Shown here one piece after another: positions 1-44,869 of a stretch of DNA of 64,000 nucleotides (its first letter is position 1; the number at the start of each line of letters is the position of its first letter). The stretch is taken from assembly GCF_030013595.1 (NCBI RefSeq), contig NZ_CP122768.1, one strand, 5' to 3'. The translations under genes were made by a program, and so were the position numbers. The notes under the pieces are model-generated. The model made no database searches. It was not told the DNA's origin and saw only the letters and a list, made by a program, of their open reading frames with translations. Source of the stretch: Escherichia coli. GTDB lineage: Bacteria > Pseudomonadota > Gammaproteobacteria > Enterobacterales > Enterobacteriaceae.

Positions 1-126
1 CAGCACACCTATTGCTGCCCACTGTGAGGGAGTGACTTTATCGAGCAGCTGTAAAAACCAGTAACCGGCACTACCTGCTGAGGTGCCATAGGCGACTCCA
101 GTTGTTAACTTATCCATGAATTTCAT
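1..126 (-). CDS. Phage holin (lambdoid S/EssD-like), N-terminal part only; ORF runs off window start
   Basis: Reverse-strand translation from ATG at 126: [42 protein letters not shown], holin-like; GAGGTG SD upstream. Confidence 0.6.
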
Positions 127-713
127 AACCCCACCTCGCAGACAAAGCGGGTGTAAATTGAGGGAATACAACGTATCGCAAAAAAGCAGAAACGTAACTG
201 ACTCCGAGTCAGTGAATAACTCAGGTATTGAGTTATCAGCTAATATCGAGACTCAAAAAATGGAAAAACCAGCTCGACGGCGGGTTTAAGCTGTGTGACG
301 AAGTAACCACTCTTAACAGCATAACCAATTTTTTACGTACGTAAACCACTGAATGATATTTATGAGAATGCTACCGAGTGTTCAAAACATCACCACAAAT
401 ACATAAGAAAACCTCAACAAATAACCAATAAATAATTTCCAGTGTTATTTTTAGCCGGTTTAAATTAAACAGACGAATTATAGAACCACCATAAATAACA
501 GCCATTAATATAAATTAGCTAATAGATTTATTTTTGTTCAAATAAGAGCCATAAATAGGTTTCGATAGAAAAAGTTCAGATAAAAATAGAGATCTACTTC
601 ACAAATTAAATGAGAAACTAAAACTTACATCTTGAAATAATCACATTGATTAGATGAATATTTATCGCGCAGTGACATCATTTTTTAATAATAGTTCAAA
701 AAAAGGGCTCACG

Positions 714-1811
714 ATGAAAAAATTAACAGTGGCAATTTCTGCTGTAGCTGCATCAGTACTGATGGCGATGTCTGCTCAGGCAGCTGAAATTTATAATAAA
801 GACAGTAACAAGCTGGATCTGTACGGGAAAGTTAATGCCAAGCACTACTTTTCCTCTAACGATGCAGATGATGGTGATACTACTTATGTTCGTCTGGGCT
901 TCAAAGGCGAAACCCAAATCAACGATCAGCTGACTGGTTTCGGTCAGTGGGAATATGAATTCAAAGGCAACCGCGCTGAATCTCAAGGTTCCTCCAAAGA
1001 CAAAACCCGTCTTGCATTTGCAGGCCTGAAATTCGGTGACTACGGCTCAATCGATTACGGCCGTAACTACGGTGTAGCATACGACATCGGTGCGTGGACT
1101 GACGTTCTGCCAGAATTCGGTGGCGATACCTGGACCCAAACAGATGTGTTCATGACTGGTCGCACCACTGGTGTTGCAACCTATCGTAACAACGACTTCT
1201 TTGGTCTGGTTGATGGTCTGAACTTTGCTGCTCAGTACCAAGGCAAAAACGATCGTAGCGATTTCGATAACTACACCGAAGGTAACGGTGATGGCTTCGG
1301 TTTCTCTGCTACCTATGAATACGAAGGATTCGGTATCGGTGCAACTTATGCGAAATCTGATCGTACCGACACTCAAGTTAATGCAGGGAAAGTTCTTCCT
1401 GAAGTATTTGCTTCCGGTAAAAATGCAGAAGTTTGGGCCGCAGGTCTGAAATATGACGCTAACAACATTTACCTGGCCACTACCTATTCTGAAACCCAGA
1501 ATATGACTGTATTTGCTGATCACTTCGTTGCTAATAAAGCTCAAAACTTCGAAGCTGTTGCACAATATCAGTTCGATTTCGGTCTGCGTCCGTCCGTTGC
1601 TTACCTGCAATCTAAAGGTAAGGATCTTGGAGTATGGGGCGATCAGGACTTAGTCAAATATGTTGATGTAGGTGCAACCTATTACTTCAACAAAAATATG
1701 TCTACTTTCGTTGATTACAAAATCAACCTGCTTGACAAAAATGACTTCACTAAAGCACTCGGTGTAAGCACTGATGACATCGTTGCTGTAGGTCTGGTTT
1801 ACCAGTTCTAA
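714..1811 (+). CDS. nmpC: Outer membrane porin NmpC (OmpD/OmpC family), prophage-encoded, intact 365 aa
   Basis: Signal peptide [23 protein letters not shown], porin motifs, C-terminal ...VGLVYQF; ORF track start at 654 is an upstream in-frame extension. Confidence 0.85.
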
Positions 1812-1948
1812 TCTGATTACGAAAAAGATATGTTGCGGGAGGCGTTGCCTCCCCAACATATAAGTGGCTCCCTCAAGCCACTTCCTTTAGGAGCACAACC
1901 TTGCTTCTAACTATATAAACCTTCTGTTATATATTACCCTTTATTTTT

Positions 1949-1973
1949 GGGGGCGTTGCAACGCCCCATTTTT
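1949..1973 (+). terminator. Rho-independent terminator downstream of nmpC
   Basis: Perfect hairpin ggggcgttgcaacgcccc followed by atttttaat. Confidence 0.55.
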
Positions 1974-2000
1974 AATAACTTTCAGTAAACAATTGGCATA

Positions 2001-2399
2001 TTAATTAGAGTTATTAACAACGATATCCATCTCTAACCGGATATCTAATGCCATTAACATCCCTTCAATTATGCCCTCAGCCTTCTGTAACCTTTTCCCG
2101 ATATAACCATCAGAGCAGCAATGCTTACCTGCCAGTGACATGAATGTCATACCGACTACATAATAATCTACTAATAAATCGTGCAAATCGCTGTTGTTCT
2201 TTTTCAGACGGGCCATGCACCCGCAAATAATCATCGCGTCATCGTCACAACATTGCGGGCGAGATTTTACTTTTGAAGGAATTAATCCCTTAAAACCGGC
2301 GGCAATGGACGACCAGGTCACATCTTCATGATTATTAGCCGCCCACGCTCCCCAACGTTCAAGAACCATCTGAATATCACGCATTAACTTTCTCCACAA
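2001..2399 (-). CDS. quuD: Late-gene antiterminator Q (QuuD-like)
   Basis: 132 aa; sequence matches my recall of DLP12 QuuD; sits directly upstream of the porin/lysis region as in K-12. Confidence 0.75.
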
Positions 2400-2401
2400 A
2401 A

Positions 2402-3397
2402 TCAGGCCAGCACACCAATCGCCAGTGCGCGATCGATAAAACGAAATATCAGCTCCAGCTGGGAGCCATACTTCTCTTCAAATGCCACGGTATCCGCATG
2501 CAGTTCGTCGTGGTGTTTTCTGCACAAAGGCAACACAAAAAGGTCATGCGCTTTTGTACCCATTCCACCCTGACCATGGCCTATCAGATGATGCGGATCA
2601 TCAGCTGGCTTTCCACAACATGCACACGGCTGTGTCTTAACCCAGCGCGTGTACTTTTCATTAACCCAGCGGCGACGTTTTGGGCGTAACATAAAAGACT
2701 CCGGCGACTCCGGATCCACTTTCAGCGCCAGCACCTTTTTCGCCTTATCCTGGATGATGCTGGTGGCAGGAACCGAAGGCACAAGGTCACTTTCCCGGGT
2801 AACAGACGGCACAACAGGCTTCGGTAATCTCAGTGCCTTACGGGCTGCACTTTCCGGTAAGGCATCCGCCAGATCATTACGAATCAGCCACCAGCACAGT
2901 TCCGGCATTGTCACAACGTGACTGTCATCAAAACCGAGATCCCGACGCACAACAGACAACACCCAGCGGGCACAGTTATCCGTTGCCATTGATTCCAGCC
3001 GTTCCGTGAACTGATCGCGCAGCTGGTTATCGCAGTGCCAGCACAGACGGATTGCACCCGGAGCGTGTCGCATTGTGGTCATGTTCTCGCTGTGCCAGTC
3101 GGAATGAGGCCACTGGCAGCCTTTTTCACGAAGTAACCAGCTTTCAAGACATTCCACGCCACCAGCACGACGGATCACTGCCTCATTGCGGAACACGGCC
3201 CGAACGGCAGGATCATCCGCCAGCGGTTGTGATGCCGCCGGAACGGCACCACTGGCGAAAGATGAATAACGCTCCGGCTCAGGCTCCAGCAGGACACGCC
3301 CCTGCATAAACAGGGGCATCAGCTCTGAACCTGGCCTGAACAATACGATCCCCATACGCGGGGCAATTTCAGGGGTCAGTAGTGCTCTCACGGTCAC
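2402..3397 (-). CDS. DUF968 family phage protein (YdfU-like) with C-terminal Cys/His HNH-like motif
   Basis: 331 aa; C-terminus CACCGKP...HHLIGHG...[10 protein letters not shown]; nin-region position. Confidence 0.55.
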
Positions 3398-3398
3398 C

Positions 3399-4241
3399 TC
3401 AATGAACGGTATCGAGCAGCTTTAACAGCTCAGGGAATCGGGATTCGAAGAAATGCGGCTGTGTCTCGCGCGGATTTGCGGGACTGGTGATGTTCTTGCC
3501 GAACATGCAACCTTTCGCTGTCAGCGACCAGAATTTTTTGATGTTGTTAATCGCTGTACGGCTGTATCGTTCGCGCTGCTCGACGATCCCCAGTTTCACC
3601 ATCTGGTGATATGCCTGATTAGCCGTCAGGCGTATACCATACTGTTTCAGCAGTGCACTCAGTGACAGTGTCGGGCGACTTGAGCCATCGTGTGCATCAG
3701 CAGGAGCATCAATGGCATAGCGCGGTGCCAGATTCGGTAAGCCAACAGCCTCCTGGAGTTTCTGACAGGCACCAAGCACTGAAGAGTTAGACAGGTTTAA
3801 CTCCCGGCGCATAAAGTCCAGCAGGATCACGCCAGCCTGCATCTTGTCAGCAGCCTGTCCGGATAATTTTTCCGGTGCGCTGGTTACCATATCGAAAGTA
3901 CGGATCACCTTCAGATGGAATGACGGGCTGATCCACATTGCATAGGCATACACCAGTTCCTTGCAGACATACGTTCCCCGTTCATTTCCCCCATGAATCA
4001 CACTCACCGGGTCAACACCCAAATTCTGGGTGTTGGTCAATTCATGAACAAGCTCAACAGTTTGTTGGCTGGAAAGAAACTTTCCCGGCTCCTTGGTTCT
4101 GGCATTTGCACCAGATGCTACTGCTGCGCGATGCAGATCGTTCAGGCTGTAACGCCCATAAGCATCACGACGAACTTCAATACCATCAATGACCATCAGA
4201 TTATTCATACTTCGTTTCTCCTCTTGATCAGGCGGCTGCAC
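3399..4241 (-). CDS. KilA-N domain protein / putative phage antirepressor
   Basis: 280 aa; N-terminal KilA-N-like segment MVIDGIEVRRDAYGRYSLNDLHRAA; start may be the internal Met at 4208. Confidence 0.5.
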   Translation of the reverse strand: MQPPDQEEKRSMNNLMVIDGIEVRRDAYGRYSLNDLHRAAVASGANARTKEPGKFLSSQQTVELVHELTNTQNLGVDPVSVIHGGNERGTYVCKELVYAYAMWISPSFHLKVIRTFDMVTSAPEKLSGQAADKMQAGVILLDFMRRELNLSNSSVLGACQKLQEAVGLPNLAPRYAIDAPADAHDGSSRPTLSLSALLKQYGIRLTANQAYHQMVKLGIVEQRERYSRTAINNIKKFWSLTAKGCMFGKNITSPANPRETQPHFFESRFPELLKLLDTVH

Positions 4242-4617
4242 CCGCCGTTTTCTCGTACTTACTGATAGTGATCTCGACCTTCCCTTTCGGGATAACCGGT
4301 CCCCACTCCACCAGCATTCTTTTCACCTGACTGTCGTCTTCCCACACACCCGCATGGGTCAGGGCGTCAAACAGCGCCTTGTTATAGTTGTCCAGATCGC
4401 GGATCCGGTTATCCGGAGGAAACAACACGATCTCCACTGAAGCAGGTGCCGACGTTGGTTTCGGCAGACGACGTAACTGCTCAACTATTGCTGCGCACGC
4501 CGCGCTCTGGAATTTGCGCCCCGCTGCGCTTATCAGACTCTTACCAGCAAACGCCCCTTTGTTGGGGTGTCGCCAGTACGTGTTCACGCTGGGCGGGAAA
4601 GGCAAGATCAGCTTCAT
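4228..4617 (-). CDS. rusA: Holliday junction resolvase RusA family
   Basis: 129 aa; ...RDLDNYNKALFDALTHAGVWEDDSQV... matches RusA catalytic-region pattern. Confidence 0.75.
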   Translation of the reverse strand: MKLILPFPPSVNTYWRHPNKGAFAGKSLISAAGRKFQSAACAAIVEQLRRLPKPTSAPASVEIVLFPPDNRIRDLDNYNKALFDALTHAGVWEDDSQVKRMLVEWGPVIPKGKVEITISKYEKTAGAAA

Positions 4618-4940
4618 ACTTTCAGGCCCCTCTCATGTAACCAGTGGGCTGCACGCAGCCTGGCGTTTTCCTCACCGGCAAGCAGTGCGCGGATAATCCC
4701 GACCGCCTCGCTGTCGTCGTCCTTCACCGCGGTATGAAGAGTTATCCCCCGGGCCACGCCACGCTTTATCGTGATGACGCCTTTTTTCTCCAGTGCGCGA
4801 AGATGCTCCACCGCTGCATTCACCGAACGGTATCCCAGCATGGTTGCCACCTCCTGATTGGTTGGCGGAAAGCCACGTTCTTGCTGGTAAGAAATCAGCA
4901 TATCCAGCACCTGCTGCTGGCATTGAGTTAACGTCGTCAT
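4614..4940 (-). CDS. LexA-type N-terminal DNA-binding domain protein, no peptidase domain
   Basis: 108 aa; LTQCQQQVLDMLISYQQERGFPPTNQEVATMLGYRSVNAAVEHLRALEKKGVI resembles the LexA winged-helix domain; 4-nt overlap with flanking genes. Confidence 0.5.
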   Translation of the reverse strand: MTTLTQCQQQVLDMLISYQQERGFPPTNQEVATMLGYRSVNAAVEHLRALEKKGVITIKRGVARGITLHTAVKDDDSEAVGIIRALLAGEENARLRAAHWLHERGLKV

Positions 4941-5590
4941 GCCGCCATCTCCCTGACCAGTTTTTCCGCCTGCTGGCGAACCTGCGCCAGAAAGGCCTCA
5001 CCACATGCCTCAAGTTCATCGCGCCCGATGTAGCTGATTGCCGGTCCCTTCCAGGTCTTGTCGAAAACAGCAATAGCACCAGCGAAGAAAGCGCCTGTCG
5101 GCACCTGCTTCTCGTCCTTCGGGATAAACCAGGCTGGCAGTTCAAAACCAATACGCCCGCGAATAAAAGCAATATGGTCTGCATCTTCCGGCCACCACAC
5201 TTCGCTGGTGGCAGCTTTGATCAGGAAAACATAGCGCCCGCCTTTATCACGCATGGCACTGGCATGCTTCATGATGTAACGCATGCCGGTGATGTATTGC
5301 CCCTCATGCTGACTGGCGCGGCTGTACGGGGGATTACCAAAGGCAGCACCTTTAAGCTCCGCAAGACGTTCTGACCAGTCATGCGCCAGCGCGTTGTCTT
5401 CCGCAGTGTAATACGCGGCGCATTTGGCGTTATCACCATCAGTAAACAGATCCAGAACAAACGGGCCAAACAGGGTGTTAATTCCCCAGAAAATGTTGTC
5501 CGGCGTGCGCCACTGATCGCCCACTTCCTTCAGTTCATGGGCTGGTTTGTTCCGCAGCTCCACCAGCGCCTGGCAATATTTATTACTCAT
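4937..5590 (-). CDS. Phage DNA N6-adenine methyltransferase (Dam-like)
   Basis: NPPY motif (GNPPYSR); start placed at Met giving TAATG coupling with the upstream gene; ORF track extends to 5623. Confidence 0.7.
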   Translation of the reverse strand: MSNKYCQALVELRNKPAHELKEVGDQWRTPDNIFWGINTLFGPFVLDLFTDGDNAKCAAYYTAEDNALAHDWSERLAELKGAAFGNPPYSRASQHEGQYITGMRYIMKHASAMRDKGGRYVFLIKAATSEVWWPEDADHIAFIRGRIGFELPAWFIPKDEKQVPTGAFFAGAIAVFDKTWKGPAISYIGRDELEACGEAFLAQVRQQAEKLVREMAA

Positions 5591-6084
5591 TAAGCCCCCA
5601 CGTAATTCCCTGACAGATACCACTCTTCACCCGATGCAGCGCGCTTGCTGCTTTTCCGTAAACACCGCTCACGACGCGCAAGAAAATTGTTTCGCTCTTG
5701 CTGGGAGTGGCTTTCACGGAATGCCGCCATCCACACCGTTGCAGCACGACGGTATAAGCCCCTGGACTCCAGTTCTTCCGCCTGGCGGGTCAGGCACAAA
5801 ATAACCCGGGGATCGTTAGTGCCGACATAGAAATTGCGCACAGGTCTGGATTCACGAACTGGTTGCGGTTCCGGCTCCTGCGGTATCTCAGTCAGCCGCG
5901 GGAAATGTCTGCGTGTATCCCCTTCACAACGGTGAGCCACACGCCCACTCTGACGTAACTTGCTTGCTGACTGCAGAACGCGCTGTCGTGAGTAACCTGC
6001 AAAAGCATCCGCAATGTCTCCGGAAGTACACCCCGGATGGGCTTCAATGAATTTCTGAACGTCATTCAAAAGACTCATGATCAC
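5590..6084 (-). CDS. Hypothetical phage protein in replication module
   Basis: 164 aa, translationally coupled to the replication gene upstream and the methyltransferase downstream. Confidence 0.45.
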   Translation of the reverse strand: MIMSLLNDVQKFIEAHPGCTSGDIADAFAGYSRQRVLQSASKLRQSGRVAHRCEGDTRRHFPRLTEIPQEPEPQPVRESRPVRNFYVGTNDPRVILCLTRQAEELESRGLYRRAATVWMAAFRESHSQQERNNFLARRERCLRKSSKRAASGEEWYLSGNYVGA

Positions 6085-7022
6085 CCCCTGAATCCTGCCG
6101 GGATCTGGCTGTAGTCCACGTTGTCGTAACTGGCTTTGAAGTACGGGTCTTCGCGTTTTTCGGTGTACGTGCTGACGGACGGCGATAAGCGCAGGGAAAG
6201 CTCATCCCATTTTTCCCGCAGCTTCGACGGGCTGAGCACGTTACGGCACCAGAACGGATCGCGACTGACGCGGCTGTACATCTCGCAGATTTGTTTATGA
6301 GTACGACCATCCTGCACACACATCAGGCGAATTTCGTTTGCCCAGGCTGTCCAGTTCGGTTCTTTGGGACGAACCACCTCGCCGTCACATTCGGCGGCAT
6401 GCTCGTACAGGGCGATGATTTTTTTCCAGAGCCACTGTGCGCAGGTCAAATCATCCTGCGTCCCCCACTGGCGCTTTTTAGGGCTGAATACAACCGCATC
6501 AGGATGGCGAGTTAAAAAATCCTGTTCAGCCGTCTGCGTGTCCGGTTGCGAAGAGTCCGGACGAGAAGGTTTTTTATCTGACGGATCATGTTTTGATTTT
6601 ACTGACGGATCCCCGCCAGATTCTGACGGGTGAAAACCCGCTTTTTTGCCAGATTTCGACGCATCAAATTTTGACGGGTCAGATTTTGATGCGTCAGATT
6701 TTGACGGGTCAGAATCTGACAGTTGAGAAAATGCCGCTGCCTGAAGCTTCGCAACGTTAAGCTGATAAACATTCGACGCATTGCGGTTACCCTGGCGACG
6801 CGCCTTACGCGTTAACCAGCCTTCTGCTTCCAGCCGTGCGATAGCCGTTCTGACGGTACTCATCCCCGCGCCAATCTGGCGGGCAATGGTTTCAATCGAT
6901 GGCCAGCACACACCTTCGTCATTACTGAAATCAGCCAGGCGGGCCATAATTGCCACGCTGGATAATTTCATGCCTGACGCTGCGCAACCATCCCATACAT
7001 AGCCGGTTAATTTAGTGCTCAT
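6081..7022 (-). CDS. Putative phage replication initiation protein (N-terminal wHTH, O-like role)
   Basis: 313 aa; HTH segment CWPSIETIARQIGAGMSTVRTAIARLEAEGWL; repetitive SDPSKSDASK linker encoded by internal iterons. Confidence 0.55.
   Translation of the reverse strand: MSTKLTGYVWDGCAASGMKLSSVAIMARLADFSNDEGVCWPSIETIARQIGAGMSTVRTAIARLEAEGWLTRKARRQGNRNASNVYQLNVAKLQAAAFSQLSDSDPSKSDASKSDPSKFDASKSGKKAGFHPSESGGDPSVKSKHDPSDKKPSRPDSSQPDTQTAEQDFLTRHPDAVVFSPKKRQWGTQDDLTCAQWLWKKIIALYEHAAECDGEVVRPKEPNWTAWANEIRLMCVQDGRTHKQICEMYSRVSRDPFWCRNVLSPSKLREKWDELSLRLSPSVSTYTEKREDPYFKASYDNVDYSQIPAGFRG
6575..6730. repeat. Iteron array (putative prophage ori) inside the replication gene
   Basis: About 8 tandem copies of a TGACGG(A/G)TC-like unit (tctgacggatc, actgacggatc, tctgacgggtg, ttgacgggtc x2, ttgatgcgtc) followed by an A/T-rich stretch. 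Confidence 0.55.
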
Positions 7023-7031
7023 GACCGACCT

Positions 7032-7370
7032 CTATTTCCCTGAATTTACGACGAAACTGTTCGAGCGGACTGAAGCACTCATGCTCATAGCCTTCGCGGA
7101 GGTAGATAACCCGTTGTGTTTCCGGTTCCCAACGAATGACTCTGACGGGCACTCCGTAGTGATCTTTGAACCAGCGGTTAACTTGTCGCAAAGGACTGTC
7201 TCCTTCTGCCGGTTGAAATCCCCCACAGCCCACTCTGCAAAGCTGTGGGTTACAATTTCCCTGTCACCTGGTACATTCACTGCATAGCAATATTCCACCT
7301 TCGCTTTTCCACCCGGTACAGGAAGCGCAATCAGTTGCGAGCGACGGTAGTGTGTTGTTAAACTGTTCAT
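7032..7370 (-). CDS. YmfM-like e14-type phage protein
   Basis: 112 aa; 4-nt overlap with the upstream CII-like gene; C-terminal half overlaps an alternative-frame ORF (7012..7233). Confidence 0.45.
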
Positions 7371-7936
7371 GCGTTAGTTTCTCCACAACCAGAAGCAATC
7401 GACGCCACGACGCCCGGAGCTGCACACTCGCGGGCGTCATTACTTTCTGAAATGCAAAAGATTTTGTAGACCAGTGCTGCATGCTCCTGCAGCTTCGAAA
7501 TTGAGAGATACAGCTCGTCGTTAATTGCTGTCTTCTCATGCGGTTCCACTACACCGTCTTCGATTGCTGAACGAATCTGTTTTGAATAACTGCCGATCTG
7601 TTCAATGACTTCCAGCAGACGCTGGTTAATATCGGCGTTGTCCACATCCTCGACGTCAGGAAGCGACACAAAGACGCCATTTGCAGACTGCGCCACAGCA
7701 TCAGCAATGAAGTGAGTGCCACCAGCACGCTGTAAAACCATTGCCCATCCCAGCGGGAAAATCTGATCGCCATCTGCACGAAGGCGGTTGAATAAAGCGT
7801 TTTCTGTTACATCGAGCCAGTCAGCCGCTTCAGCGTAACCACCCGGCAACGCCGCGATAGTTTTTCTGACAGCTTTCACGTACCACTCAGGCTGTTTTTC
7901 TATTTTCCAGTGATGCTTACCCACGATTAGCCTCAT
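7367..7936 (-). CDS. YmfL-like / CII-type phage regulatory protein
   Basis: 189 aa, directly downstream of cro in the rightward operon. Confidence 0.55.
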
Positions 7937-7967
7937 CGTTCTGTGGTTAAAAATTGAAAGTGTTCTG

Positions 7968-8168
7968 CTAATCTTTCGGATAGATATCCGGTCTTAAGTC
8001 AGATTTCGTAATTGCACCTGACGTGCATTGCTCAAGTTTTTTAGCCAGCACAAAACTGGCTTTTTTATAGCCATTGAAAACCAGCCGTAAGTAGCCAGGA
8101 GTTGAGCCAACTTTTCCGGCCAACTCGCCCTGCTGTTCTTTGGTTAAAGAGTCCCAATACGCTTTCAT
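7968..8168 (-). CDS. Cro-like repressor
   Basis: 66 aa MKAYWDSLTKEQQGELAGKVGSTPGYLRLVFNGYKKASF... with HTH; GGAG SD; divergent from cI; ORF track's 167 aa is an upstream extension. Confidence 0.65.
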   Translation of the reverse strand: MKAYWDSLTKEQQGELAGKVGSTPGYLRLVFNGYKKASFVLAKKLEQCTSGAITKSDLRPDIYPKD

Positions 8169-8222
8169 ACAATATGTACCTCCGGTGTACATATTACATG
8201 ATTGAAATGAACCTTCAAGACA

Positions 8223-8243
8223 CTTGTACCTTAACGGTACAAG
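8223..8243. promoter_or_regulatory. Putative OR operator palindrome between cro and cI
   Basis: cttgtacc-ttaa-cggtacaag inverted repeat; further TGTAC half-sites at 8175 and 8186. Confidence 0.45.
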
Positions 8244-8258
8244 GGTTTTAATTTCGTT

Positions 8259-8933
8259 ATGAAAACAATCCATGACATCCGGCGGTCTAACGCCCGAAAA
8301 CTGAGAGATGGTGTTGGAGGGAATTCTTCCTTTGCCACTATGATTGATCGCGAGCCAACCCAGACCAGCAGGTTTATGGGAGATGGTGCTACTAAAAATA
8401 TCGGTGACAGCATGGCACGACACATCGAAAAATGTTTCGACCTGCCTGTCGGATGGCTCGATCAAGAACACCAGACAACGAACATCACAAAAAAACCTGA
8501 TGTTTCAATCACTAATAAACAAATCACATTAGTCCCTGTCATATCATGGGTACAGGCCGGAGCATGGAAAGAAGTTGGATATTCTGAGGTTGATTTGAGC
8601 ACAGCAGAAACGTATCCCTGCCCTGTACCCTGTGGGGAAATGACTTATATCTTGCGGGTGATAGGTGATTCAATGATTGATGAGTACCGCCCGGGAGACA
8701 TGATTTTTGTCGATCCTGAAGTACCTGCCTGCCACGGTGACGACGTTATTGCATTGATGCACGATACAGGTGAAACCACCTTCAAAAGGTTGATAGAAGA
8801 TGGGACACAGCGTTATCTCAAAGCGTTAAACCCAAACTGGCCTGAGCCTTACATTAAGATCAACGGTAATTGCTCTATAATTGGAACTGTGATTTTCTCA
8901 GGAAAACCAAGAAGATACAAAATCAAAGCCTAA
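8259..8933 (+). CDS. CI-like prophage repressor (HTH plus S24 LexA-like peptidase), CohE-like
   Basis: 224 aa; C-terminal S24 region ...VIGDSMIDEYRPGDMIFVDPEV...; divergent from cro. Confidence 0.8.
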   Translation: MKTIHDIRRSNARKLRDGVGGNSSFATMIDREPTQTSRFMGDGATKNIGDSMARHIEKCFDLPVGWLDQEHQTTNITKKPDVSITNKQITLVPVISWVQAGAWKEVGYSEVDLSTAETYPCPVPCGEMTYILRVIGDSMIDEYRPGDMIFVDPEVPACHGDDVIALMHDTGETTFKRLIEDGTQRYLKALNPNWPEPYIKINGNCSIIGTVIFSGKPRRYKIKA

Positions 8934-8946
8934 TCAATGTTTATGA

Positions 8947-8968
8947 ACCTGCTTCGGCAGGTTTTTTT
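8947..8968 (+). terminator. Rho-independent terminator after the cI-like gene
   Basis: acctgc-ttcg-gcaggt hairpin followed by tttttt. Confidence 0.6.
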
Positions 8969-8972
8969 ATAC

Positions 8973-9000
8973 TTGACAATGTACCCACGAGATACATAAT
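8973..9000 (+). promoter_or_regulatory. Putative pL-like sigma70 promoter with operator repeats
   Basis: TTGACA (8973-8978), 16-bp spacer, CATAAT (8995-9000); direct repeats atgtacccacgaga / atgtacccaagaga share the TGTACC operator half-site. Confidence 0.45.
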
Positions 9001-9081
9001 GTACCCAAGAGAAACAACAAACAGGCAGGACGCCCACGAAGTAGCCGCCTGGGGCATATGAAGTCCAGGATGATTCGTTAG

Positions 9082-9110
9082 CAACAAAAAAGCGCCCTAC
9101 AGGACGCTTA
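9082..9110 (-). terminator. Rho-independent terminator for the minus-strand moron
   Basis: On the minus strand: agcgtcc-tgta-gggcgct hairpin followed by tttttgttg, 38 nt past the stop at 9148. Confidence 0.45.
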
Positions 9111-9147
9111 GCTCTTTAACAATCTGGATATCCACAACAGTAGTAAT

Positions 9148-9639
9148 CTACAGATTGCCGTTAAGTTTTCTGGACAACTCCTCAATGGATGGAGGCGATA
9201 CGTAATCCGGATTTTTATTCATCAGAAACTTATTTTCACAGTGGAGGCACCTGCTTTTATGAAAAAGCTCATCTTCGCTAACCGGGAATGGTTGAAGTAT
9301 CGATACTATCTTTTGTCCAAAACATTTTGGGCAAAGATGCATGGTTATGCTGCCACCGTTCACGATTACCTCCTTCGAGTATACAAAAGTACCCGACTCA
9401 AGTTGGTTAAGGATATAGCCTTCCGTCTGAGCCTCAAAGTTTTCGAATTCTGCAATTTTAGCTTTGAGAGAAGCATTTATTTCTTGATAAGAGCCCACCA
9501 GTTCAACGAGAGACACGCATTCGCGCTGAATAGACGCAAGCTTTGAGTTCAGCTCACCAATAGCCGCATTTACTTCAGCTTGAGTTTTTGCCTCGTTCAT
9601 TAGTTTTGCAATCTGGGCTGTTTCACGAATAGCCGTCAT
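9148..9639 (-). CDS. Hypothetical coiled-coil / C4 zinc-ribbon protein (moron between cI and early-left operon)
   Basis: 163 aa from Met at 9639; N-terminal coiled-coil-like region, C-terminal CPKC...(26)...CLHC; opposite to pL transcription; AT-rich; ORF track extends implausibly to 9927. Confidence 0.5.
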   Translation of the reverse strand: MTAIRETAQIAKLMNEAKTQAEVNAAIGELNSKLASIQRECVSLVELVGSYQEINASLKAKIAEFENFEAQTEGYILNQLESGTFVYSKEVIVNGGSITMHLCPKCFGQKIVSILQPFPVSEDELFHKSRCLHCENKFLMNKNPDYVSPPSIEELSRKLNGNL

Positions 9640-9949
9640 TGCTGCCGTTAATTCAGCGATCACATTGAATACTCTTATTGTTGTTGGGGATATCCAGATT
9701 AACCGAATCCTTGTTGTTGGGGAATAACCAGGTCCACCTCGCCTGATGTGGCTAAAAGCAGGCACATAACAGCTAAGTATTTTCAACCAGAGAGAATCCT
9801 TAGCGTTGTGGTGAATGCGGCTCAGCGCACGCGGGTTAAGGTTGAGGCTGACAGTCGACCTTCTGTGGATACCCACCCGCCTGGTGTGCAACCTTCGCCA
9901 GGCACCGGGAGGCACCCGGCACCACAACTTTATGCTGTGTGTAGTCCTG

Positions 9950-9996
9950 GCGGTACCAGTTTGTACCCTTGCTTCCGGCTGGTACCGTCCTTTTTT
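9950..9996 (+). terminator. Rho-independent terminator in GC-rich non-coding region
   Basis: cggtaccag ... ctggtaccg 9-bp stem followed by tcctttttt. Confidence 0.5.
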
Positions 9997-9997
9997 G

Positions 9998-10084
9998 CAA
10001 AACAGAGAAGAGCATCACCGGACGACGGGCTCATAACCCAATCCATCCGGGCGGCTGCCACCGCAGGTGTTCTTCTCTGTTTTG
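9998..10084. repeat. Long imperfect inverted repeat / RNA stem
   Basis: caaaacagagaagagca and tgttcttctctgttttg (17 bp, one mismatch) flanking ~53 bp of GC-rich sequence. Confidence 0.4.
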
Positions 10085-10133
10085 TGGAGAAACCAACCGA
10101 CCTTGCAGGGTCGATATGATGAGGAGCAGCAAA

Positions 10134-10496
10134 ATGGCTAGCGAACGCAGTACTGATGTGCAGGCATTTATCGGGGAGCTGGACGGCGGCGTATTTGAAA
10201 CCAAAATCGGCGCAGTTCTCAGTGAGGTCGCTTCCGGTGTGATGAACACGAAAACCAAAGGGAAGGTCTCACTCAATCTGGAAATCGAACCGTTTGATGA
10301 GAACCGTGTGAAAATCAAACACAAACTCTCATATGTTCGCCCAACTAACCGCGGGAAAATTTCCGAAGAAGACACCACCGAAACGCCGATGTATGTCAAT
10401 CGCGGTGGTCGCCTGACTATTCTGCAGGAAGACCAGGGACAATTACTGACTCTTGCCGGTGAACCTGACGGAAAACTCCGCGCAGCAGGTCGTTAA
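10134..10496 (+). CDS. YfdP-like prophage protein
   Basis: 120 aa; GAGGAG SD 7 nt upstream of ATG; first gene of the early-left operon, gene order as in CPS-53 yfdPQRST. Confidence 0.6.
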   Translation: MASERSTDVQAFIGELDGGVFETKIGAVLSEVASGVMNTKTKGKVSLNLEIEPFDENRVKIKHKLSYVRPTNRGKISEEDTTETPMYVNRGGRLTILQEDQGQLLTLAGEPDGKLRAAGR

Positions 10497-10561
10497 TATC
10501 GTTCGTAATAAACTGATTATTTATCTCATCACTGAATATCTTTATATAGTGAGGACTTATT

Positions 10562-11386
10562 ATGTCTCAGAACTTAGACGCAACCGCAATTAATCAAATC
10601 CATGCCCTTATTTCTGCTCAGAGTGTTAATGAAATTATCAGTAAGATTGGTGCCGATGCTGTGGCATTGCCTGAGAATTTCCGCATTCATGATCTGGAAA
10701 AATTTAATTTAAATCGCTTCCGTTTCCGTGGTGCACTTTCCACTGCCAGCATCGATGATTTTACCCGTTATTCTAAAGATCTTGCAGATGAAGGCACCCG
10801 CTGCTTTATCGATGCCGATAATATGCGTGCCGTCAGTGTGCTTAACCTGGGTACTATTGATGAGCCAGGTCACGCAGATAACACTGCCACTCTCAAACTG
10901 AAAAAGACAGCACCGTTCTCTGCTCTGTTGTCTGTTAACGGCGAGCGTAACTCCCAGAAGTCACTGGCAGAATGGATCGAAGACTGGGCCGACTACCTTG
11001 TGGGCTTTGATGCTAATGGTGACGCCATTCAAGCAACAAAAGCGGCTGCGGCAGTCCGTAAAATCACGATTGAAGCAAACCATACCGCTGATTTTGAAGA
11101 TAATGACTTCAGCGGCAAACGCTCCCTGATGGAGTCTGTCGAAGCGAAGACCAAAGACATTATGCCAGTGGCATTTGAATTTAAATGCGTTCCGTTTGAA
11201 GGTCTGAAAGAACGTCCGTTTAAATTACGCCTCAGCATTATCACTGGCGATCGTCCTGTACTGGTTCTGCGCATTATTCAGCTGGAAGCGGTGCAGGAAG
11301 AAATGGCTAACGAATTTCGTGATCTGCTTGTTGAGAAATTCAAAGACAGCAAAGTAGAAACCTTTATTGGTACTTTCACCGCCTGA
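10562..11386 (+). CDS. yfdQ: YfdQ family protein (DUF2303)
   Basis: 274 aa, same length and position as CPS-53 YfdQ; TGAGGA SD. Confidence 0.7.
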
Positions 11387-11397
11387 TTTCATTACTG

Positions 11398-11420
11398 CAA
11401 ATGCCCCTGCGGGGGCATTT
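11398..11420 (+). terminator. Stable stem-loop between yfdQ and yfdR (possible attenuator)
   Basis: aatgcccc-tgcg-ggggcatt perfect 8-bp stem; weak T tract. Confidence 0.35.
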
Positions 11421-11513
11421 ATGGAAACGTAATTAACTCAATAATCACCGGATGGTGAGGGCTTCCTTTTACCAGAATTCAGCGCGGTGCAGTGCATATA
11501 CGTGGAGAACAAA

Positions 11514-12050
11514 ATGTCATTTATTAAAACTTTTTCCGGGAAGCATTTTTATTATGACAAGATAAATAAAGACGACATCGATATTAACGATATCGCGGTT
11601 TCCCTTTCAAATATCTGTCGCTTTGCCGGTCATCTTTCGCACTTCTACAGCGTCGCCCAACATGCGGTTCTTTGCAGCCAGCTGGTGCCGCAGGAATTTG
11701 CTTTTGAAGCGTTAATGCATGATGCAACAGAAGCGTATTGCCAGGACATTCCCGCACCACTGAAACGCCTTCTTCCTGACTATAAACGGATGGAAGAAAA
11801 AATAGACGCCGTAATCCGTGAGAAATACGGGTTACCCCCAGTTATGAGTACACCCGTGAAATATGCCGATCTCATCATGCTGGCAACCGAACGCCGCGAT
11901 CTCGGGCTTGATGATGGCTCTTTCTGGCCTGTACTGGAAGGCATCCCGGCAACAGAGATGTTCAACGTGATTCCACTGGCACCGGGTCATGCCTACGGGA
12001 TGTTTATGGAACGTTTTAACGATTTATCGGAGTTACGCAAATGCGCATGA
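11514..12050 (+). CDS. yfdR: HD-domain 5'-deoxynucleotidase YfdR-like
   Basis: 178 aa from MSFIKTF; HD-family residues (...QHAVLCSQ..., ...HDATEAY...); ORF track start at 11487 is an upstream extension. Confidence 0.7.
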   Translation: MSFIKTFSGKHFYYDKINKDDIDINDIAVSLSNICRFAGHLSHFYSVAQHAVLCSQLVPQEFAFEALMHDATEAYCQDIPAPLKRLLPDYKRMEEKIDAVIREKYGLPPVMSTPVKYADLIMLATERRDLGLDDGSFWPVLEGIPATEMFNVIPLAPGHAYGMFMERFNDLSELRKCA

Positions 12051-12403
12051 ATGTTTTCGAAATGGAAGGGTTTCTTCGCGGGAAATGTGTACCGCGAGAT
12101 CTGAAAGTGAACGAAACAAATGCTGAGTACCTGTTACGTAAATTCGACGCGCTTGAAGCTAAATGTGCGGCACTGGAAAACAAAATAATACCAGTGTCAG
12201 CTGAACTGCCACCAGCAAATGAAAGTGTTCTGTTATTTGATGCTAACGGAGAAGGCTGGCTGATTGGCTGGCGTTCTCTCTGGTACACCTGGGGACAAAA
12301 AGAAACCGGAGAATGGCAGTGGACATTTCAGGTCGGGGACCTTGAAAACGTCAATATCACTCACTGGGCAGTAATGCCAAAAGCACCGGAGGCTGGAGCA
12401 TAA
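12041..12403 (+). CDS. yfdS: YfdS-like prophage protein (DUF551)
   Basis: 120 aa, follows yfdR as in CPS-53. Confidence 0.65.
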   Translation: MRMNVFEMEGFLRGKCVPRDLKVNETNAEYLLRKFDALEAKCAALENKIIPVSAELPPANESVLLFDANGEGWLIGWRSLWYTWGQKETGEWQWTFQVGDLENVNITHWAVMPKAPEAGA

Positions 12404-12708
12404 TGACCACATTTACCAATAAAGAACTGATTAAAGAAATCAAAGAACGAATCAGCAGCCTAGAGGTTCGAGACGATATTGAGCGCCGTGCTTATGAAAT
12501 CGCACTCGTATCTCTGGAAGTAGAGCCAGATGAACGCGAAGCCTATGAATTATTCATGGAAAAGCGTTTCGGTGACTTAGTAGATCGTCGGAGAGTAAAA
12601 AACGGCGATAACGAATACATGGCATGGGATATGACTCTCGGTTGGATCGTCTGGCAGCAACGAGCTGGTATCCATTTTTCAACAATGACACAGCAAGAGG
12701 TGAAATAA
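12403..12708 (+). CDS. yfdT: YfdT-like prophage protein
   Basis: 101 aa, coupled to yfdS (ATGA-type overlap). Confidence 0.65.
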   Translation: MTTFTNKELIKEIKERISSLEVRDDIERRAYEIALVSLEVEPDEREAYELFMEKRFGDLVDRRRVKNGDNEYMAWDMTLGWIVWQQRAGIHFSTMTQQEVK

Positions 12709-13079
12709 TGGAGCCATACAGCCTCACACTCGATGAGGCCTGTCAGTTTCTTAAGATATCCAGACCAACCGCCACCAACTGGATACGAACAGGCCGCCTA
12801 CAGGCAACACGTAAAGATCCAACCAAGCCAAAATCTCCTTACCTCACAACACGGCAAGCTTGCATTGCGGCGCTTCAGTCTCCGCTGCATACTGTCCAGG
12901 TGAGCGCGGGTGATGGCATAACAGAGGAAAGAAAATGTCACTCTTCCGCAGAAATGAAATATGGTATGCCTCGTATTCGCTCCCGGGCGGGAAACGAATT
13001 AAGGAATCTCTTGGCACAAAGGACAAGCGGCAAGCTCAGGAGTTGCACGACAAGCGAAAAGCAGAACTCTGGCGAGTAG
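12708..13079 (+). CDS. Putative excisionase (AlpA/Xis-like HTH); 3' end uncertain, frame overlaps int
   Basis: Starts TAATG-coupled to yfdT; N-terminal HTH-like segment [28 protein letters not shown]; frame stays open to 13079. Confidence 0.45.
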
Positions 13080-14098
13080 AAAAGCTAGGGGATTTACCTG
13101 ATGTCACTTTTGAAGAGGCCTGCCTAAGATGGCTTGAGGAAAAAGCTGATAAAAAATCTCTCGATTCAGATAAAAGCCGGATTGAGTTCTGGCTTGAACA
13201 TTTTGAGGGTATAAGGCTTAAAGATATCTCGGAGGCAAAGATTTACTCTGCTGTAAGCAGAATGCATAACAGAAAGACGAAAGAAATATGGAAACAGAAA
13301 GTTCAGGCCGCCATCAGGAAAGGTAAAGAACCGCCTGTTTATGAACCAAAGCCAGTATCAACTCAGACAAAGGCAAAGCATCTTGCCATGATAAAGGCCA
13401 TTCTCCGTGCTGCAGAACGCGACTGGAAGTGGCTGGAAAAAGCGCCTGTCATCAAGATACCAGCGGTCAGAAACAAGCGAGTCAGATGGCTGGAAAAGGA
13501 GGAAGCAAAACGCCTTATTGATGAGTGCCCCGAACCACTGAAATCTGTCGTCAAGTTTGCGCTGGCAACTGGTCTGAGAAAGTCGAACATCATAAATCTG
13601 GAATGGCAACAAATCGACATGCAGCGACGAGTTGCCTGGGTGAATCCAGAAGAGAGCAAATCAAACCGCGCCATTGGTGTGGCGCTGAACGATACCGCCT
13701 GTAAAGTGTTGCGTGATCAAATAGGCAAGCATCACAAATGGGTGTTTGTACATACCAAGGCGGCTAAGCGAGCAGATGGAACATCAACGCCTGCGGTCAG
13801 GAAGATGCGCATCGACAGCAAGACATCATGGCTATCAGCTTGTCGTCGTGCAGGAATTGAAGATTTCCGTTTCCATGACCTCAGACACACCTGGGCAAGC
13901 TGGCTGATCCAGTCAGGCGTCCCATTATCTGTGCTTCAGGAAATGGGCGGATGGGAGTCCATAGAAATGGTTCGTAGGTATGCTCACCTTGCGCCTAATC
14001 ATTTGACAGAGCATGCAAGGAAAATAGACGACATTTTTGGTGATAATGTCCCAAATATGTCCCACTGTGGAATTATGGAGGATATAAAGAAGGCGTAA
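12935..14098 (+). CDS. intD: Tyrosine integrase (IntD-like), adjacent to argU
   Basis: 387 aa; C-terminal catalytic region ...[17 protein letters not shown]...VRRYAHL; ends 16 bp from the tRNA 3' end. Confidence 0.85.
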
Positions 14099-14113
14099 CT
14101 GATTGAATTGTAA

Positions 14114-14190
14114 TGGCGCGCCCTGCAGGATTCGAACCTGCGGCCCACGACTTAGAAGGTCGTTGCTCTATCCAACTGAGCTAAGGGCGC
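14114..14190 (-). tRNA. argU: tRNA-Arg (anticodon UCU), argU
   Basis: Reverse complement GCGCCCTTAGCTCAGTTGGATAGAGCAACGACCTTCTAAGTCGTGGGCCGCAGGTTCGAATCCTGCAGGGCGCGCCA, 77 nt, cloverleaf-compatible. Confidence 0.95.
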
Positions 14191-14432
14191 GTTGATACCG
14201 CAATGCGGTGTAATCGCGTGAATTATACGGTCAACCCTTGCTGAGTCAATGGCTTTTGATCTGGTTGCTGAACAAGTGAACGACCGCGTCTGATTTTCTG
14301 ATTTATTTCGCTATAGCGGCAAACAAACGTACATCGCTGCGCGTCTGAATCAAGAAAACTCGTATTTTCATGTATCAAAGTACAATTTCCCGCCCTAACG
14401 GAAAATTGTCCGATCCAATGAGACTGGTAACT

Positions 14433-30512: not shown

Positions 30513-32180
30513 TTATTGCAAACGTTCTAATAAACGAGCCAGTTTTTTATTGCCGCCGGCGACTGGCGACCATTGGTAATGCACTACCGGTTTGCTGGCG
30601 CTTTGTAGCTCCAGCGCAAAGCTGCGTAATCCAATGTTAATCACGGCGACGTTTTCCAGTAATGACGGTGTATGTGGCTGTGCGGCAGGCGAGAGCGGAT
30701 GAATTAACGCTGCCGCCAGCAAGGTGGCTTCCGGTAGCGAACTCACGACCACAATCCCCGCATCTTCCAGCGTGGCGATTTGCTGCGAGCGGCATTGCGG
30801 GTCACGTTCGGTACCTGTCACCGTGGCAATGGCGTACAGCGGTTGGCTGTCTGAACGCGCGGCACAGGCTTTTTGCCAGGCGCTCACCAGCGAGGCAGCA
30901 GGATCGGCGGTCGCGCCGAAGCCAATCACGACATCAAGCAGCAACACGCGCACTTGCGGTTTAGCGCCGAGATCGGCAATTAACTGGTTGCGTAAGGTTG
31001 GGTCGATCATCGGATGGGGACGCCCGACGGTGTAGAAATCATCGCCGAGGTCAATGATCTGGTGACCATCGGCGTCCAGCATCATGCCGTGATGATGGGT
31101 ATCGTCGGCTTCCACGCCAAGGTGTCCGGCAAGTAATCCCGCCGCTTCGGCAGCCAGCGTACCGCCGGTATACAAACCGCAAATAAATCCGCTGCTGGCA
31201 GGCGTTATCGCGTTACGTCGCGCCGAGACGCGTGAAAGCAGGCAAGCCAGGCGTGCGGCCTCATCCAGCGAGGAGGCAAACCAGACATTCTCGTCGCGGG
31301 CCACCGCCGGGGTATAACCTAAAAACAGCGCCACCGTCGGTTTGCCAGTTGCTTTCATGGCATTAACAATTTTCAGACGCACAGCTTCGGCAGGTGGTTT
31401 TGAAACAAATGCCAGCACTTCGCTTTTCGCGTCGGCGCTTAACATTTCCAGCGCCGTTAGCGCACTGATGCCGCCCACTTCACGGCTGAGGTCGCGCCCG
31501 CCAAGACCAATCGCGTGAGTAATTCCCTCCTCTGCCAGCGCAATCTGTGAGCACAGCTCCTGAATCCCGGTACCGGAAGCGCCAATGACGCCAATGTTGC
31601 CTTCCGGCATCACGTTAGCAAAAGCCAGCGGCGTGGCGGCAATCATCGACGTACCGCAGTCCGGCCCCATCACCAGCAAGCCTTTATCGCGTGCGCGGGT
31701 TTTGAGTTGGATTTCATCTTCCAGCGTGACGTTATCGGAGAACATCATCACGTTGAGGTTGCGATCCAGCGCCTGATTCGCCAGCTCCGCCGCATACTCG
31801 CCAGCCACTGAAATCAGCGCCAGACTGGCATCGGGTAATTTCTGACAGGCACTGTCCCAGCGACGCACCTGCGTCAACGCCTGGCTGCTGCCTGAACCCT
31901 GCGCCAGTTGTTTTAGCGCCTCTTCAAGCTGTTGCATAATCGCCTGCGCGATCCCCGCATCCGCCGCTTCGCTACGAATTGCCACGCAAATATCGTTCGG
32001 CGTGGCGTTATTAAAATCGTCATGCCAGAAACCTGTCGTCTCTAATAACGCTTTATTGGCGGGCGTACCCATCATTACGGAAACATCATCAACATTTTCT
32101 GATTCGCTTAGTTTTCGTGAAATAATCATTAAACTGACCGAATCCTGAAAACACCCTTTTTTAATAAAGGCGTGGATCAT
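30513..32180 (-). CDS. fdrA: FdrA (CoA-binding, succinyl-CoA synthetase-like)
   Basis: 555 aa. Confidence 0.85.
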   Translation of the reverse strand: MIHAFIKKGCFQDSVSLMIISRKLSESENVDDVSVMMGTPANKALLETTGFWHDDFNNATPNDICVAIRSEAADAGIAQAIMQQLEEALKQLAQGSGSSQALTQVRRWDSACQKLPDASLALISVAGEYAAELANQALDRNLNVMMFSDNVTLEDEIQLKTRARDKGLLVMGPDCGTSMIAATPLAFANVMPEGNIGVIGASGTGIQELCSQIALAEEGITHAIGLGGRDLSREVGGISALTALEMLSADAKSEVLAFVSKPPAEAVRLKIVNAMKATGKPTVALFLGYTPAVARDENVWFASSLDEAARLACLLSRVSARRNAITPASSGFICGLYTGGTLAAEAAGLLAGHLGVEADDTHHHGMMLDADGHQIIDLGDDFYTVGRPHPMIDPTLRNQLIADLGAKPQVRVLLLDVVIGFGATADPAASLVSAWQKACAARSDSQPLYAIATVTGTERDPQCRSQQIATLEDAGIVVVSSLPEATLLAAALIHPLSPAAQPHTPSLLENVAVINIGLRSFALELQSASKPVVHYQWSPVAGGNKKLARLLERLQ

Positions 32181-32497
32181 AACAACTCCTTAAAAATTGC
32201 ACCCATGGCAATTGCACGAGCAGTGTTAATGTGGCGATTACGGTATCGATGACAACGAGTAAATAAGGTGATGAATATCACACAGGGATTATTAACAAAA
32301 GAATTCAAATAACCGCCAGGCTATTACGTGTTATTTTTTTAATAAGCGTGGTTGTTTTAAAAACCAGGTTAAAAGCGAGCGGATTATCAAATAAATTCTA
32401 ACTATATTTTTTTGCCTGTCTGGATCACATAATCCAGATATTTTCCCTGTATGTTAATTGCAGTCATGCTTCACACCGTCGTTAAAAAGGAAGACAG

Positions 32498-33547: not shown

Positions 33548-33568
33548 TTATTGAGACAGGACTTTCTT

Positions 33569-34804: not shown

Positions 34805-34814
34805 GGAGTTATAA

Positions 34815-35600: not shown

Positions 35601-35642
35601 GTCATACCACTCGCCTGATTATTTTTAGCTATGTTGGATTTT

Positions 35643-35669
35643 GCCACGGTTTATACCGTGGCTTTTTTT
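35643..35669 (+). terminator. Rho-independent terminator after allE
   Basis: gccacggt-ttat-accgtggc followed by ttttttt. Confidence 0.6.
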
Positions 35670-35684
35670 GCGGTAAATTCAGGT

Positions 35685-35714
35685 AAAAAACGGATGCGGG
35701 ATAAAATGCATCCG
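35685..35714 (-). terminator. Rho-independent terminator after glxK
   Basis: cggatgc...gcatccg hairpin with U-run on the minus strand. Confidence 0.5.
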
Positions 35715-35729
35715 CTCTAATGGCAAGAG

Positions 35730-36875: not shown

Positions 36876-36896
36876 TATCAATCCTTTTTCAACAAA

Positions 36897-38204: not shown

Positions 38205-38254
38205 ACCTTAACCGGAGAATGCCCGCCACAAGGACGGGCATTGCAGGGGCCAGA

Positions 38255-39616: not shown

Positions 39617-39675
39617 AACAAACTCCTTGTAAAATACAGATTGGTTTTTAACTCAATGTTCAATATCGTGATTAA

Positions 39676-43055: not shown

Positions 43056-43067
43056 TATTTATCTCCC

Positions 43068-44849: not shown

Positions 44850-44869
44850 TTTATTCCTACCTCTATTAA

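Follow-up and report, generated by a model that had tools for sequence, protein, structure and literature searches.

The prophage arm at argU and its closest relatives

The tRNA gene argU of Escherichia coli is a frequent site of phage integration; prophages have been reported at this locus in 74% of strains, the copy in K-12 (DLP12) is cryptic, and a 47-bp attachment (att) core has been reported for it (PMC6379469). Among the lambda-related temperate phages used as a panel in plaquing assays, ΦR29.1 is listed as an isolated temperate phage (PMC13190303). The serotype-converting Shigella phages SfII, SfIV and SfV have an early region of the order yfdT-yfdP, cI/cro/cII-like, O, yfdN, dam, rusA, DUF968. 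The lambdoid phage PA-2, which is functional, carries a porin gene (porin Lc) between Q and its lysis genes, and this is the classical counterpart of nmpC. Here we describe one end of a prophage that lies against argU in a 64,000-nucleotide stretch of E. coli DNA (assembly GCF_030013595.1, contig NZ_CP122768.1), the whole of which is referred to below as the window. Positions 1-14158 of the window very probably represent the integrase-proximal third of a ΦR29.1-type, lambda-like temperate prophage inserted in the 3' end of argU. The prophage type, its site and a near-identical isolated representative are already known, and the finding is correct but ordinary, in that it concerns a widespread type of lambda-like prophage.

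In order to place the arm, the DLP12, e14 and CPS-53 loci of K-12 were aligned to window 1-14300 by blastn, phage records were compared by megablast, and 5,426 complete E. coli genomes were surveyed, a genome being counted if at least 80% of the 14.2 kb was found in one place. Domains and families were assigned with Pfam, PHROGs, PADLOC and NCBIfam, and RNAs with Rfam and ARAGORN. The coordinates of all features are collected in the table. Position 1 of the window falls inside the holin gene, and what is seen is the int-proximal side of the element.

The closest phage record was that of Escherichia phage PhiR29_1 (ΦR29.1; PV340556.1, 46,273 bp, host ECOR13), to which the arm is 99.69% identical over 14,139 nt and with which it is collinear from the holin to the att core, shared accessory genes (the porin gene and a gene for a Rip1-like protein, described below) included; PhiR29_2 and PhiR49_1 were the next closest phage records. 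The evidence for isolation of ΦR29.1 comes from the GenBank host fields and the strain table of PMC13190303. The differences between the window and PhiR29_1 amount to 42 substitutions, three of which are in operator regions, and two 1-nt intergenic indels. They result in ten amino acid changes, all in accessory proteins (KilA-N, DUF4222, yfdP, yfdQ, yfdS and yfdT). Conversely, Int, Xis, cI, Cro, O, Q, RusA and the porin have the same amino acid sequences in both, and the predicted proteins for lysogeny control, excision, replication and late activation in the arm are thereby identical to those of an isolated phage. Beyond the part that corresponds to the window, in its late 32 kb, PhiR29_1 encodes a lambda-type series of virion proteins, comprising Nu1, A, W, B, C/Nu3, D, E, FI, FII, Z, U, V, G, T, H, M, L, K, I, J, Lom, Stf and Tfa; the ompT-side end comes after these. 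The arm was also found in 190 of the 5,426 genomes, with the best match in E. coli 2014C-4587 (99.87% identity), where the prophage occupies 47.5 kb between 47-nt direct repeats.

The border with the chromosome lies at the att core. ARAGORN placed argU, a tRNA-Arg(UCU) gene, at 14114-14190 (-), and it scored 72 bits against the Rfam tRNA model, which at gathering thresholds was the sole Rfam match inside the prophage. The 47-nt core at the junction, AATGGCGCGCCCTGCAGGATTCGAACCTGCGGCCCACGACTTAGAAG, lies partly within argU, which is left intact by a 3' end that the prophage supplies, and int ends 15 nt from the tRNA gene. The second copy of the core was seen in relatives only: in 2014C-4587 it is repeated at a distance of 47,496 bp, in the ompT-envY interval. 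The initial annotation had given the prophage a span of 1-14113, which located the arm, the border itself being the att core rather than position 14113 exactly.

Next to the core, the integrase gene, which at the DNA level is 99.45% identical to K-12 intD, is overlapped at its start for 145 nt by a full-length xis. The Xis product is 75% identical to that of P22 across 99% of its length; the xis-int overlap is alike in P22, and a 387-aa Int is suggested by the overlap with the P22 int annotation. P22 differs in its att site (thrW rather than argU), and its remaining genome is not like that of the window's prophage. The Xis of phage phi458 is also related, and the phi458 paper mentions neither argU nor att sites. 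In K-12, homology of xisD to the window begins only at 12840, and so the xis of DLP12 lacks the N-terminal DNA-binding part. In relatives of the window's prophage, the NCBI annotation pipeline (PGAP) reports an "incomplete helix-turn-helix protein" that corresponds to the first 22 codons of the 123-aa xis open reading frame (ORF). In the PhiR29_1 record xis is not annotated. For annotation, the value of the comparison is that the region is identified, the att core is fixed and an intact Xis is shown although pipelines miss it.

Full-length ORFs were found for 22 of the 22 genes in the arm, in line with the claim first made for it that all visible genes are intact; two PGAP pseudogene flags in relatives appear to be annotation artefacts. 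The sizes first stated for cI (224 aa), the ymfL-like gene (189 aa from its first ATG) and the ymfM-like gene (112 aa) likewise proved accurate. The P21-type holin has counterparts at PhiR29_1 14013-14228 and in K-12 essD, and the porin gene is 95-98% identical to both halves of K-12 nmpC, IS5 being absent from it. Origin iterons (4-5 copies, spacing 15 nt) were located within the O gene at ~6579-6729. In the early-left operon, yfdQ corresponds to DUF2303, yfdR to an HD 5'-deoxynucleotidase and yfdS to DUF551.

Two further observations concern single genes. The rusA of PhiR29_1 is annotated as encoding 65 aa (locus L001, 9713-9910), and the identical DNA encodes a 129-aa ORF. The 108-aa LexA-type protein encoded between Dam and RusA (4614-4940) has no S24 cleavage domain, and it could be a putative non-cleavable binder of SOS boxes.

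Table. Features of the prophage arm and its matches to K-12 cryptic prophages (window coordinates)
Feature	Position	Strand	Evidence or remarks
Class II holin (essD / S21 type), 5' part, 42 codons	1-126	-	Pfam Phage_holin_2_1, E 2.5e-18
DLP12 essD-nmpC-quuD match	1-1753 and 1745-2419		blastn 95.0% and 97.8%; porin gene without IS5
Porin (nmpC / lc / OmpD type), 365 aa, intact, moron between Q and lysis genes	714-1811	+	Pfam Porin_1, E 2e-156
Late antiterminator Q (quuD)	2001-2384	-	Pfam Phage_antitermQ, E 1e-53; 97.8% to DLP12 quuD
DUF968/HNH protein	2402-3391	-	Pfam, PHROGs, PADLOC
No match to DLP12, e14 or CPS-53	2420-5323		blastn
KilA-N protein	3399-4208	-	Pfam, PHROGs, PADLOC
RusA resolvase	4228-4617	-	Pfam, PHROGs, PADLOC
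108-aa protein, LexA DNA-binding domain alone	4614-4940	-	Pfam, PHROGs, PADLOC
Dam methyltransferase	4937-5590	-	Pfam, PHROGs, PADLOC
CPS-53 yfdM/yfdN/yfdO match	5324-6789		blastn 97.7%
yfdN (PerC-like activator)	5590-6084	-	Pfam PerC; 97.7% to CPS-53
O-type replication initiator, 313 aa, intact	6081-7022	-	HTH_36 and DnaD_N-like N-terminus
e14 ymfK, ymfT, ymfL, ymfM, oweE match	6789-9082		blastn 98.5%
DUF4222 ORF, alternative frame	7012-7191	-	Pfam DUF4222
ymfM, 112 aa	7032-7370	-	phrog_1170, full length; 98.5% to e14
cII-like ymfL	7367-7924 (189 aa from start 7936)	-	Pfam Phage_CP76; 98.5% to e14
cro-type repressor ymfT, 66 aa	7968-8168	-	HTH_3 / YdaS-type match
Divergent promoter/right-operator region, 90 nt	8169-8258		Two TGTACC-N7-GGTACA palindromes, 8174-8192 and 8225-8243
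cI-type repressor ymfK, 224 aa	8259-8933	+	Pfam Peptidase_S24, E 1.5e-26
Leftward early promoter, TTGACA-16-CATAAT	8973-9016	+	11/12 promoter match; two operator half-repeats overlap
Rip1-like protein, 171 aa, coiled coil and CxxC...CxxC	9148-9663	-	phrog_1244, E 9e-60 (PHROG of unknown function)
e14 ymfH match	9734-10123		blastn 89.5%
STnc100-like structured RNA	9775-9998 (wider structured region 9730-10135)	+	Rfam RF02076, 40.3 bits, E 5.5e-7
CPS-53 yfdP-yfdT match	10115-12770		blastn 97.7%
Early-left operon yfdP, yfdQ, yfdR, yfdS, yfdT	10134-12708	+	97.7% to CPS-53; Pfam and PHROGs; all ORFs open
Excisionase Xis, P22-type, 123 aa, full length	12708-13079	+	Pfam HTH_17; phrog_2907 1-116/117
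DLP12 xisD'/intD/argU match	12840-14300		blastn 99.45%
Tyrosine integrase IntD, 387 aa	12935-14098	+	Pfam Phage_integrase 1-171/172, E 5.5e-47
att core, 47 nt, int-proximal prophage/chromosome junction	14112-14158		Covers the 3' 45 nt of argU

Control regions and the state of the prophage

The translation of cI contains the motifs Ala-Gly (VQAGAW), GDSM and FKRL, which point to a LexA-like predicted self-cleavage domain. Induction of the prophage would begin with RecA-stimulated (SOS) self-cleavage of the S24-domain cI and the derepression of both early promoters. Excision at the 47-nt core would then be carried out by Xis and Int, replication would be started by O at the iteron origin, and Q would activate the genes for lysis and the virion. 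In the same scheme, the porin gene and the Rip1-like gene would be accessory genes that are expressed in the lysogen.

Whether the copy in the window can follow such a course was judged by proxy, and a possible inducibility, as the initial annotation had proposed, is supported by the near-identity of the arm to the isolated phage ΦR29.1; we consider it slightly more likely than not that the window copy is inducible. If it is, a phage that brings with it a porin gene and a Rip1-like defence gene can be released from the strain. The alternative that survives best is that the copy is a grounded (defective) prophage in which the late region or the regulation is broken and which would then look like a less decayed DLP12; we consider this a tenable although not a probable explanation.

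Several observations weigh against reading the arm as part of a working ΦR29.1-type prophage, and those on the tail genes, the operator regions and the strains with an identical flank also favor a grounded one. The lysis partners, terminase, virion genes, cos and second att copy all lie upstream of window position 1. No surveyed genome was identical to the prophage of the window, the best match differing from it by 17 substitutions and one indel, and in that nearest complete genome, 2014C-4587, PGAP flags two tail genes as pseudogenes, K (frameshifted) and G (internal stop). Private changes are found in the operator regions of the window: position 8221 is C, where PhiR29_1, 2014C-4587, HCP5S3_I2 and K-12 e14 all have T, and this position, which belongs to a GATACT-like hexamer that precedes cI, is 4 nt from the right-operator palindrome; in addition, window-private substitutions at 8986 and 8988 are at the center of the first left-operator repeat, in the spacer of the leftward promoter. 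Lastly, the chromosomal flank of the window (14332-39000) is 100.0% identical to that of two pig isolates, HCP5S3_I2 and LCP30S3_I5, in whose prophage copies ISVsa5 is present both in the porin gene, which it splits, and beside argU. Between these copies of the insertion sequence (IS) the early arm, from the 3' half of the porin gene to argU, is inverted, parting Q from the late genes (in HCP5S3_I2 the rearranged copy is at 31543-47826 of NZ_CM149870.1, locus L006). This inversion is an example of how such a prophage becomes grounded, and since strains with an identical flank carry an IS-rearranged copy, decay in the lineage is real. The high prevalence of argU-locus prophages and the cryptic state of the K-12 copy (PMC6379469) also favor a grounded copy.

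On the other side, the window has no IS in the porin gene or beside argU, and thus neither of the two ISVsa5 copies, and its arm is collinear with a live phage from holin to att. The prophages of HCP5S3_I2 and LCP30S3_I5 are only 99.7% identical to that of the window, and the late region of HCP5S3_I2 is otherwise unflagged. None of the 22 visible genes is interrupted, and the sequences of the key proteins are those of ΦR29.1. As such, we retain possible inducibility as the preferred reading of the window copy, at the strength given above.

One stretch next to the leftward promoter stood out in the comparisons. For the first ~65 nt of the predicted leftward transcript (9013-9077, +), conservation is 88-94% in phages of Klebsiella, Citrobacter and Salmonella, which differ in the sequence that flanks this stretch. 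Because this conservation extends to phages with different flanks, it suggests that 9013-9077 may be a functional leader element. No counterpart of it was found on the rightward side, and a put-like antitermination RNA was rejected as a candidate, as the leftward leader and the rightward operon share only chance 9-12-mers.

The early region and the K-12 cryptic prophages

When the arm is read against K-12, it falls into segments that match three different cryptic prophages, and the likeness to each of the three had been recognized in the initial annotation. The integrase/argU junction and the order of Q, nmpC and holin follow the layout of DLP12 (blastn identity 95-99.5%), the early-left operon is that of CPS-53 (yfdP-T, and also yfdM, yfdN and yfdO; 97.7%), and the immunity region is that of e14 (cI-cro-ymfL-ymfM; 98.5%). 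The O gene belongs to two of them at once, its N-terminal 78 codons matching e14 oweE and the remainder CPS-53 yfdO.

Comparison with phages led us to a simpler account of these segments. From ~2.4 to 13.2 kb, the window aligns without a break and in the same order with SfIV, SfII, SfV and several E. coli phages, at 96-98% identity; SfIV alone spans window 2336-13203 at 96.4%, both SfII and SfIV span 6100-7500 unbroken at 98%, and the nin-type region at 2402-5590 is ~96% identical to that of SfIV and SfV. SfII, SfIV and SfV share the early genes with the window in the same order at 96-98%, and differ in having other integrases and att sites, other virion modules and gtr genes. Because of this contiguity and collinearity, the e14-like and CPS-53-like tiles are, as judged from the alignments, a single SfII/SfIV-type early region, of which e14 and CPS-53 (KpLE1) each retain only a part. 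Thus, of the claim that the prophage is a mosaic, the segment matches to DLP12, e14 and CPS-53 stand, whereas e14 and CPS-53 cease to be separate sources. The appearance of an e14 and CPS-53 mosaic is an effect of reading the sequence through K-12. The genuine module joints are near 2420, between the early and Q sides, and at 12770-12840 inside xis, between the early and int-att sides.

The likeness to DLP12 is similarly confined to the two ends of the arm. Shared with DLP12 are the 47-nt argU core, intD (99.45%) and the quuD-nmpC-essD order at 95-98%, and DLP12 also resembles the relatives of the window's prophage in bor, ybcV, ybcW, nohD and the ompT-side end. It differs in the whole of its int-Q region (exoD', peaD', renD::IS3, emrE, ybcK-ybcO, ninE, rusA and ylcG), in the IS5 within nmpC, in its truncated xis and in the absence of the segment that extends from A to the tail genes. 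No blastn match to the DLP12 early region (ren, ybcK-ybcO, ninE and the DLP12 rusA) was found in window 2420-12840. As far as it is visible, the arm exceeds K-12 DLP12 in completeness, with an uninterrupted porin gene, a full-length Xis and the whole of an immunity, replication and Q region. To call the prophage a more complete DLP12 is nonetheless justified only at its att/int end and from Q into the late part, and not in the early region, to which that of DLP12 has no DNA similarity.

On this basis the element very probably comprises four blocks. The first is a DLP12-type att/int/xis module. The second is the contiguous SfII/SfIV-type early region with cI between its two promoters, the leftward one followed by an STnc100-like RNA, yfdP-T, xis and int, and the rightward one by cro, the cII-like ymfL, ymfM, O with the origin, yfdN, dam, rusA and Q. 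The third is a Q-porin-holin block of DLP12/PA-2 type, and the fourth, outside the window and expected from its relatives, would consist of lambda-type head and tail genes.

A second alternative is that the prophage is a true three-way recombinant, newly built in one cell from DLP12-, e14- and CPS-53-like prophages, and the sharp borders of the matches at 6789, 10115 and 12770/12840 are what such an origin would give. We regard it as very unlikely, as two of these borders have another source. CPS-53 follows the window as far as position 6789 and resumes at 10115, the joint having a microhomology of 2 nt (locus L005, 8586-8587); it has a clean deletion of window 6790-10114, the stretch that e14 retains. 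The e14 sequence, for its part, extends from 6789/6790 to ~10123, and a fragment of a terminase gene is joined to it at 6790 (locus L004, 9404). The two remnants are exact complements, and the O gene is split at the same nucleotide in both, oweE and yfdO together being one O gene. Since phages are contiguous across 6789 and 10115, these positions are K-12 deletion end points and not phage joints; 6789 is not a general mosaic hot spot either, as no phage match breaks there. Consistent with this, the K-12 junctions were full-length in 361 and 283 of the 5,426 genomes, and among the matches listed all were laboratory derivatives of K-12. The single SfII/SfIV-type early region therefore remains the preferred account.

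The coincidence of the two breakpoints in K-12 leads us to speculate that e14 and CPS-53 did not decay independently and that a single linked recombination event, or else a site-specific break ~60 nt away from the origin iterons, gave both their present form; to this suggestion we give somewhat less than an even chance. Gain of the immunity segment by e14 through cut-and-paste from CPS-53 is disfavored by the xisE/ymfH junction, which is present at 95% identity in the non-K-12 genome SZQ1, and this border is therefore native to e14-type elements. The intact sequence in the window can serve as a reference for reconstructing the decay of the K-12 cryptic prophages.

The weakest alternative, a satellite or a non-phage integrative island at argU that carries lambdoid early genes, has in its favor that early genes alone are visible in the window and is exceedingly improbable, given that in all close relatives the holin gene precedes those for endolysin, Rz and terminase and a complete virion operon of lambda type (late genes after the holin are present in PhiR29_1, 2014C-4587 and HCP5S3_I2) and that Q, the qut-side layout and the lysis cassette are phage late-control features.

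Accessory genes, a structured RNA and other loci in the window

Between cI and the early-left operon is a moron, opposed to the leftward promoter and with its own terminator (9109-9090), that encodes the 171-aa protein referred to above as Rip1-like; e14 has ymfI/ymfJ at this place. A phmmer search of the PDB matched the protein to entry 9oox, "ring interacting pore 1 (Rip1)", with an E value of 2.7e-7 over 137 residues. The alignment pairs residues 14-150 with 28-159 of the 164-aa chain 9oox_L, and the CxxC...CxxC arrangement is common to the two proteins. Neither PADLOC nor NCBIfam gave a match for the protein, the PDB sequence search alone having matched Rip1. Rip1 has recently been described, in brief accounts, as a defence protein of prophages that senses and caps the ring of the small terminase and thereby stops the replication of phages. 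By homology, the 171-aa gene is like a Rip1 defence gene and may be a candidate of that kind.

Upstream of yfdP is a region that resembles the structured RNA STnc100. The match extends over the full Rfam model and is under its gathering score (40.3 versus 47 bits); related phage loci score 35-41 bits. The region folds with a z-score of -6.2 against shuffled sequence, and of the 61 pairs in the fold eight have a compensatory change among five sequences. The RNA ends in an intrinsic terminator (a hairpin and U-run) just upstream of yfdP; Salmonella phage ST64B and Cronobacter phage phiES15 show covariation in the terminator stem, and a 26-bp hairpin is found 3' of the RNA at ~9990-10100. The RNA is conserved in ST64B, phiES15, phiNP and Klebsiella phages, where it falls in gaps of the annotation. 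Overlapping it is the e14 ymfH homologue, which has four indels relative to e14 and is what PGAP reports as a "frameshifted hypothetical protein". In view of the predicted fold, the ymfH-homologue region is more likely to be an RNA gene than a dead protein gene.

Outside the prophage, two loci in the window differ from K-12. Between selU and ybbP, the 7.3-kb rhsD-ybbC-ylbH-ybbD-ylbI-ylbG block of K-12 is absent, and ~700 bp (48636-49342) are present instead. This segment has an Rfam AgrB match at 48695-48783 (-; 53.6 bits) and a small ORF, 48973-49128, which ends ...LIALLELIRQFIE and looks similar to the DinQ peptide; the segment has the appearance of a type I toxin-antitoxin locus of the dinQ/agrB kind. 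The second locus, which K-12 lacks, is a 2.5-kb insert of low G+C content (0.43) between ybbJ and cueR (57708-60236). Encoded in it are a coiled-coil protein of 338 aa (58541-59557, +), the C-terminus of which is by eye like a YadA-type anchor, a lipoprotein of 140 aa (59611-60033, +), a membrane peptide of 67 aa and, on the minus strand, a protein of 120 aa.

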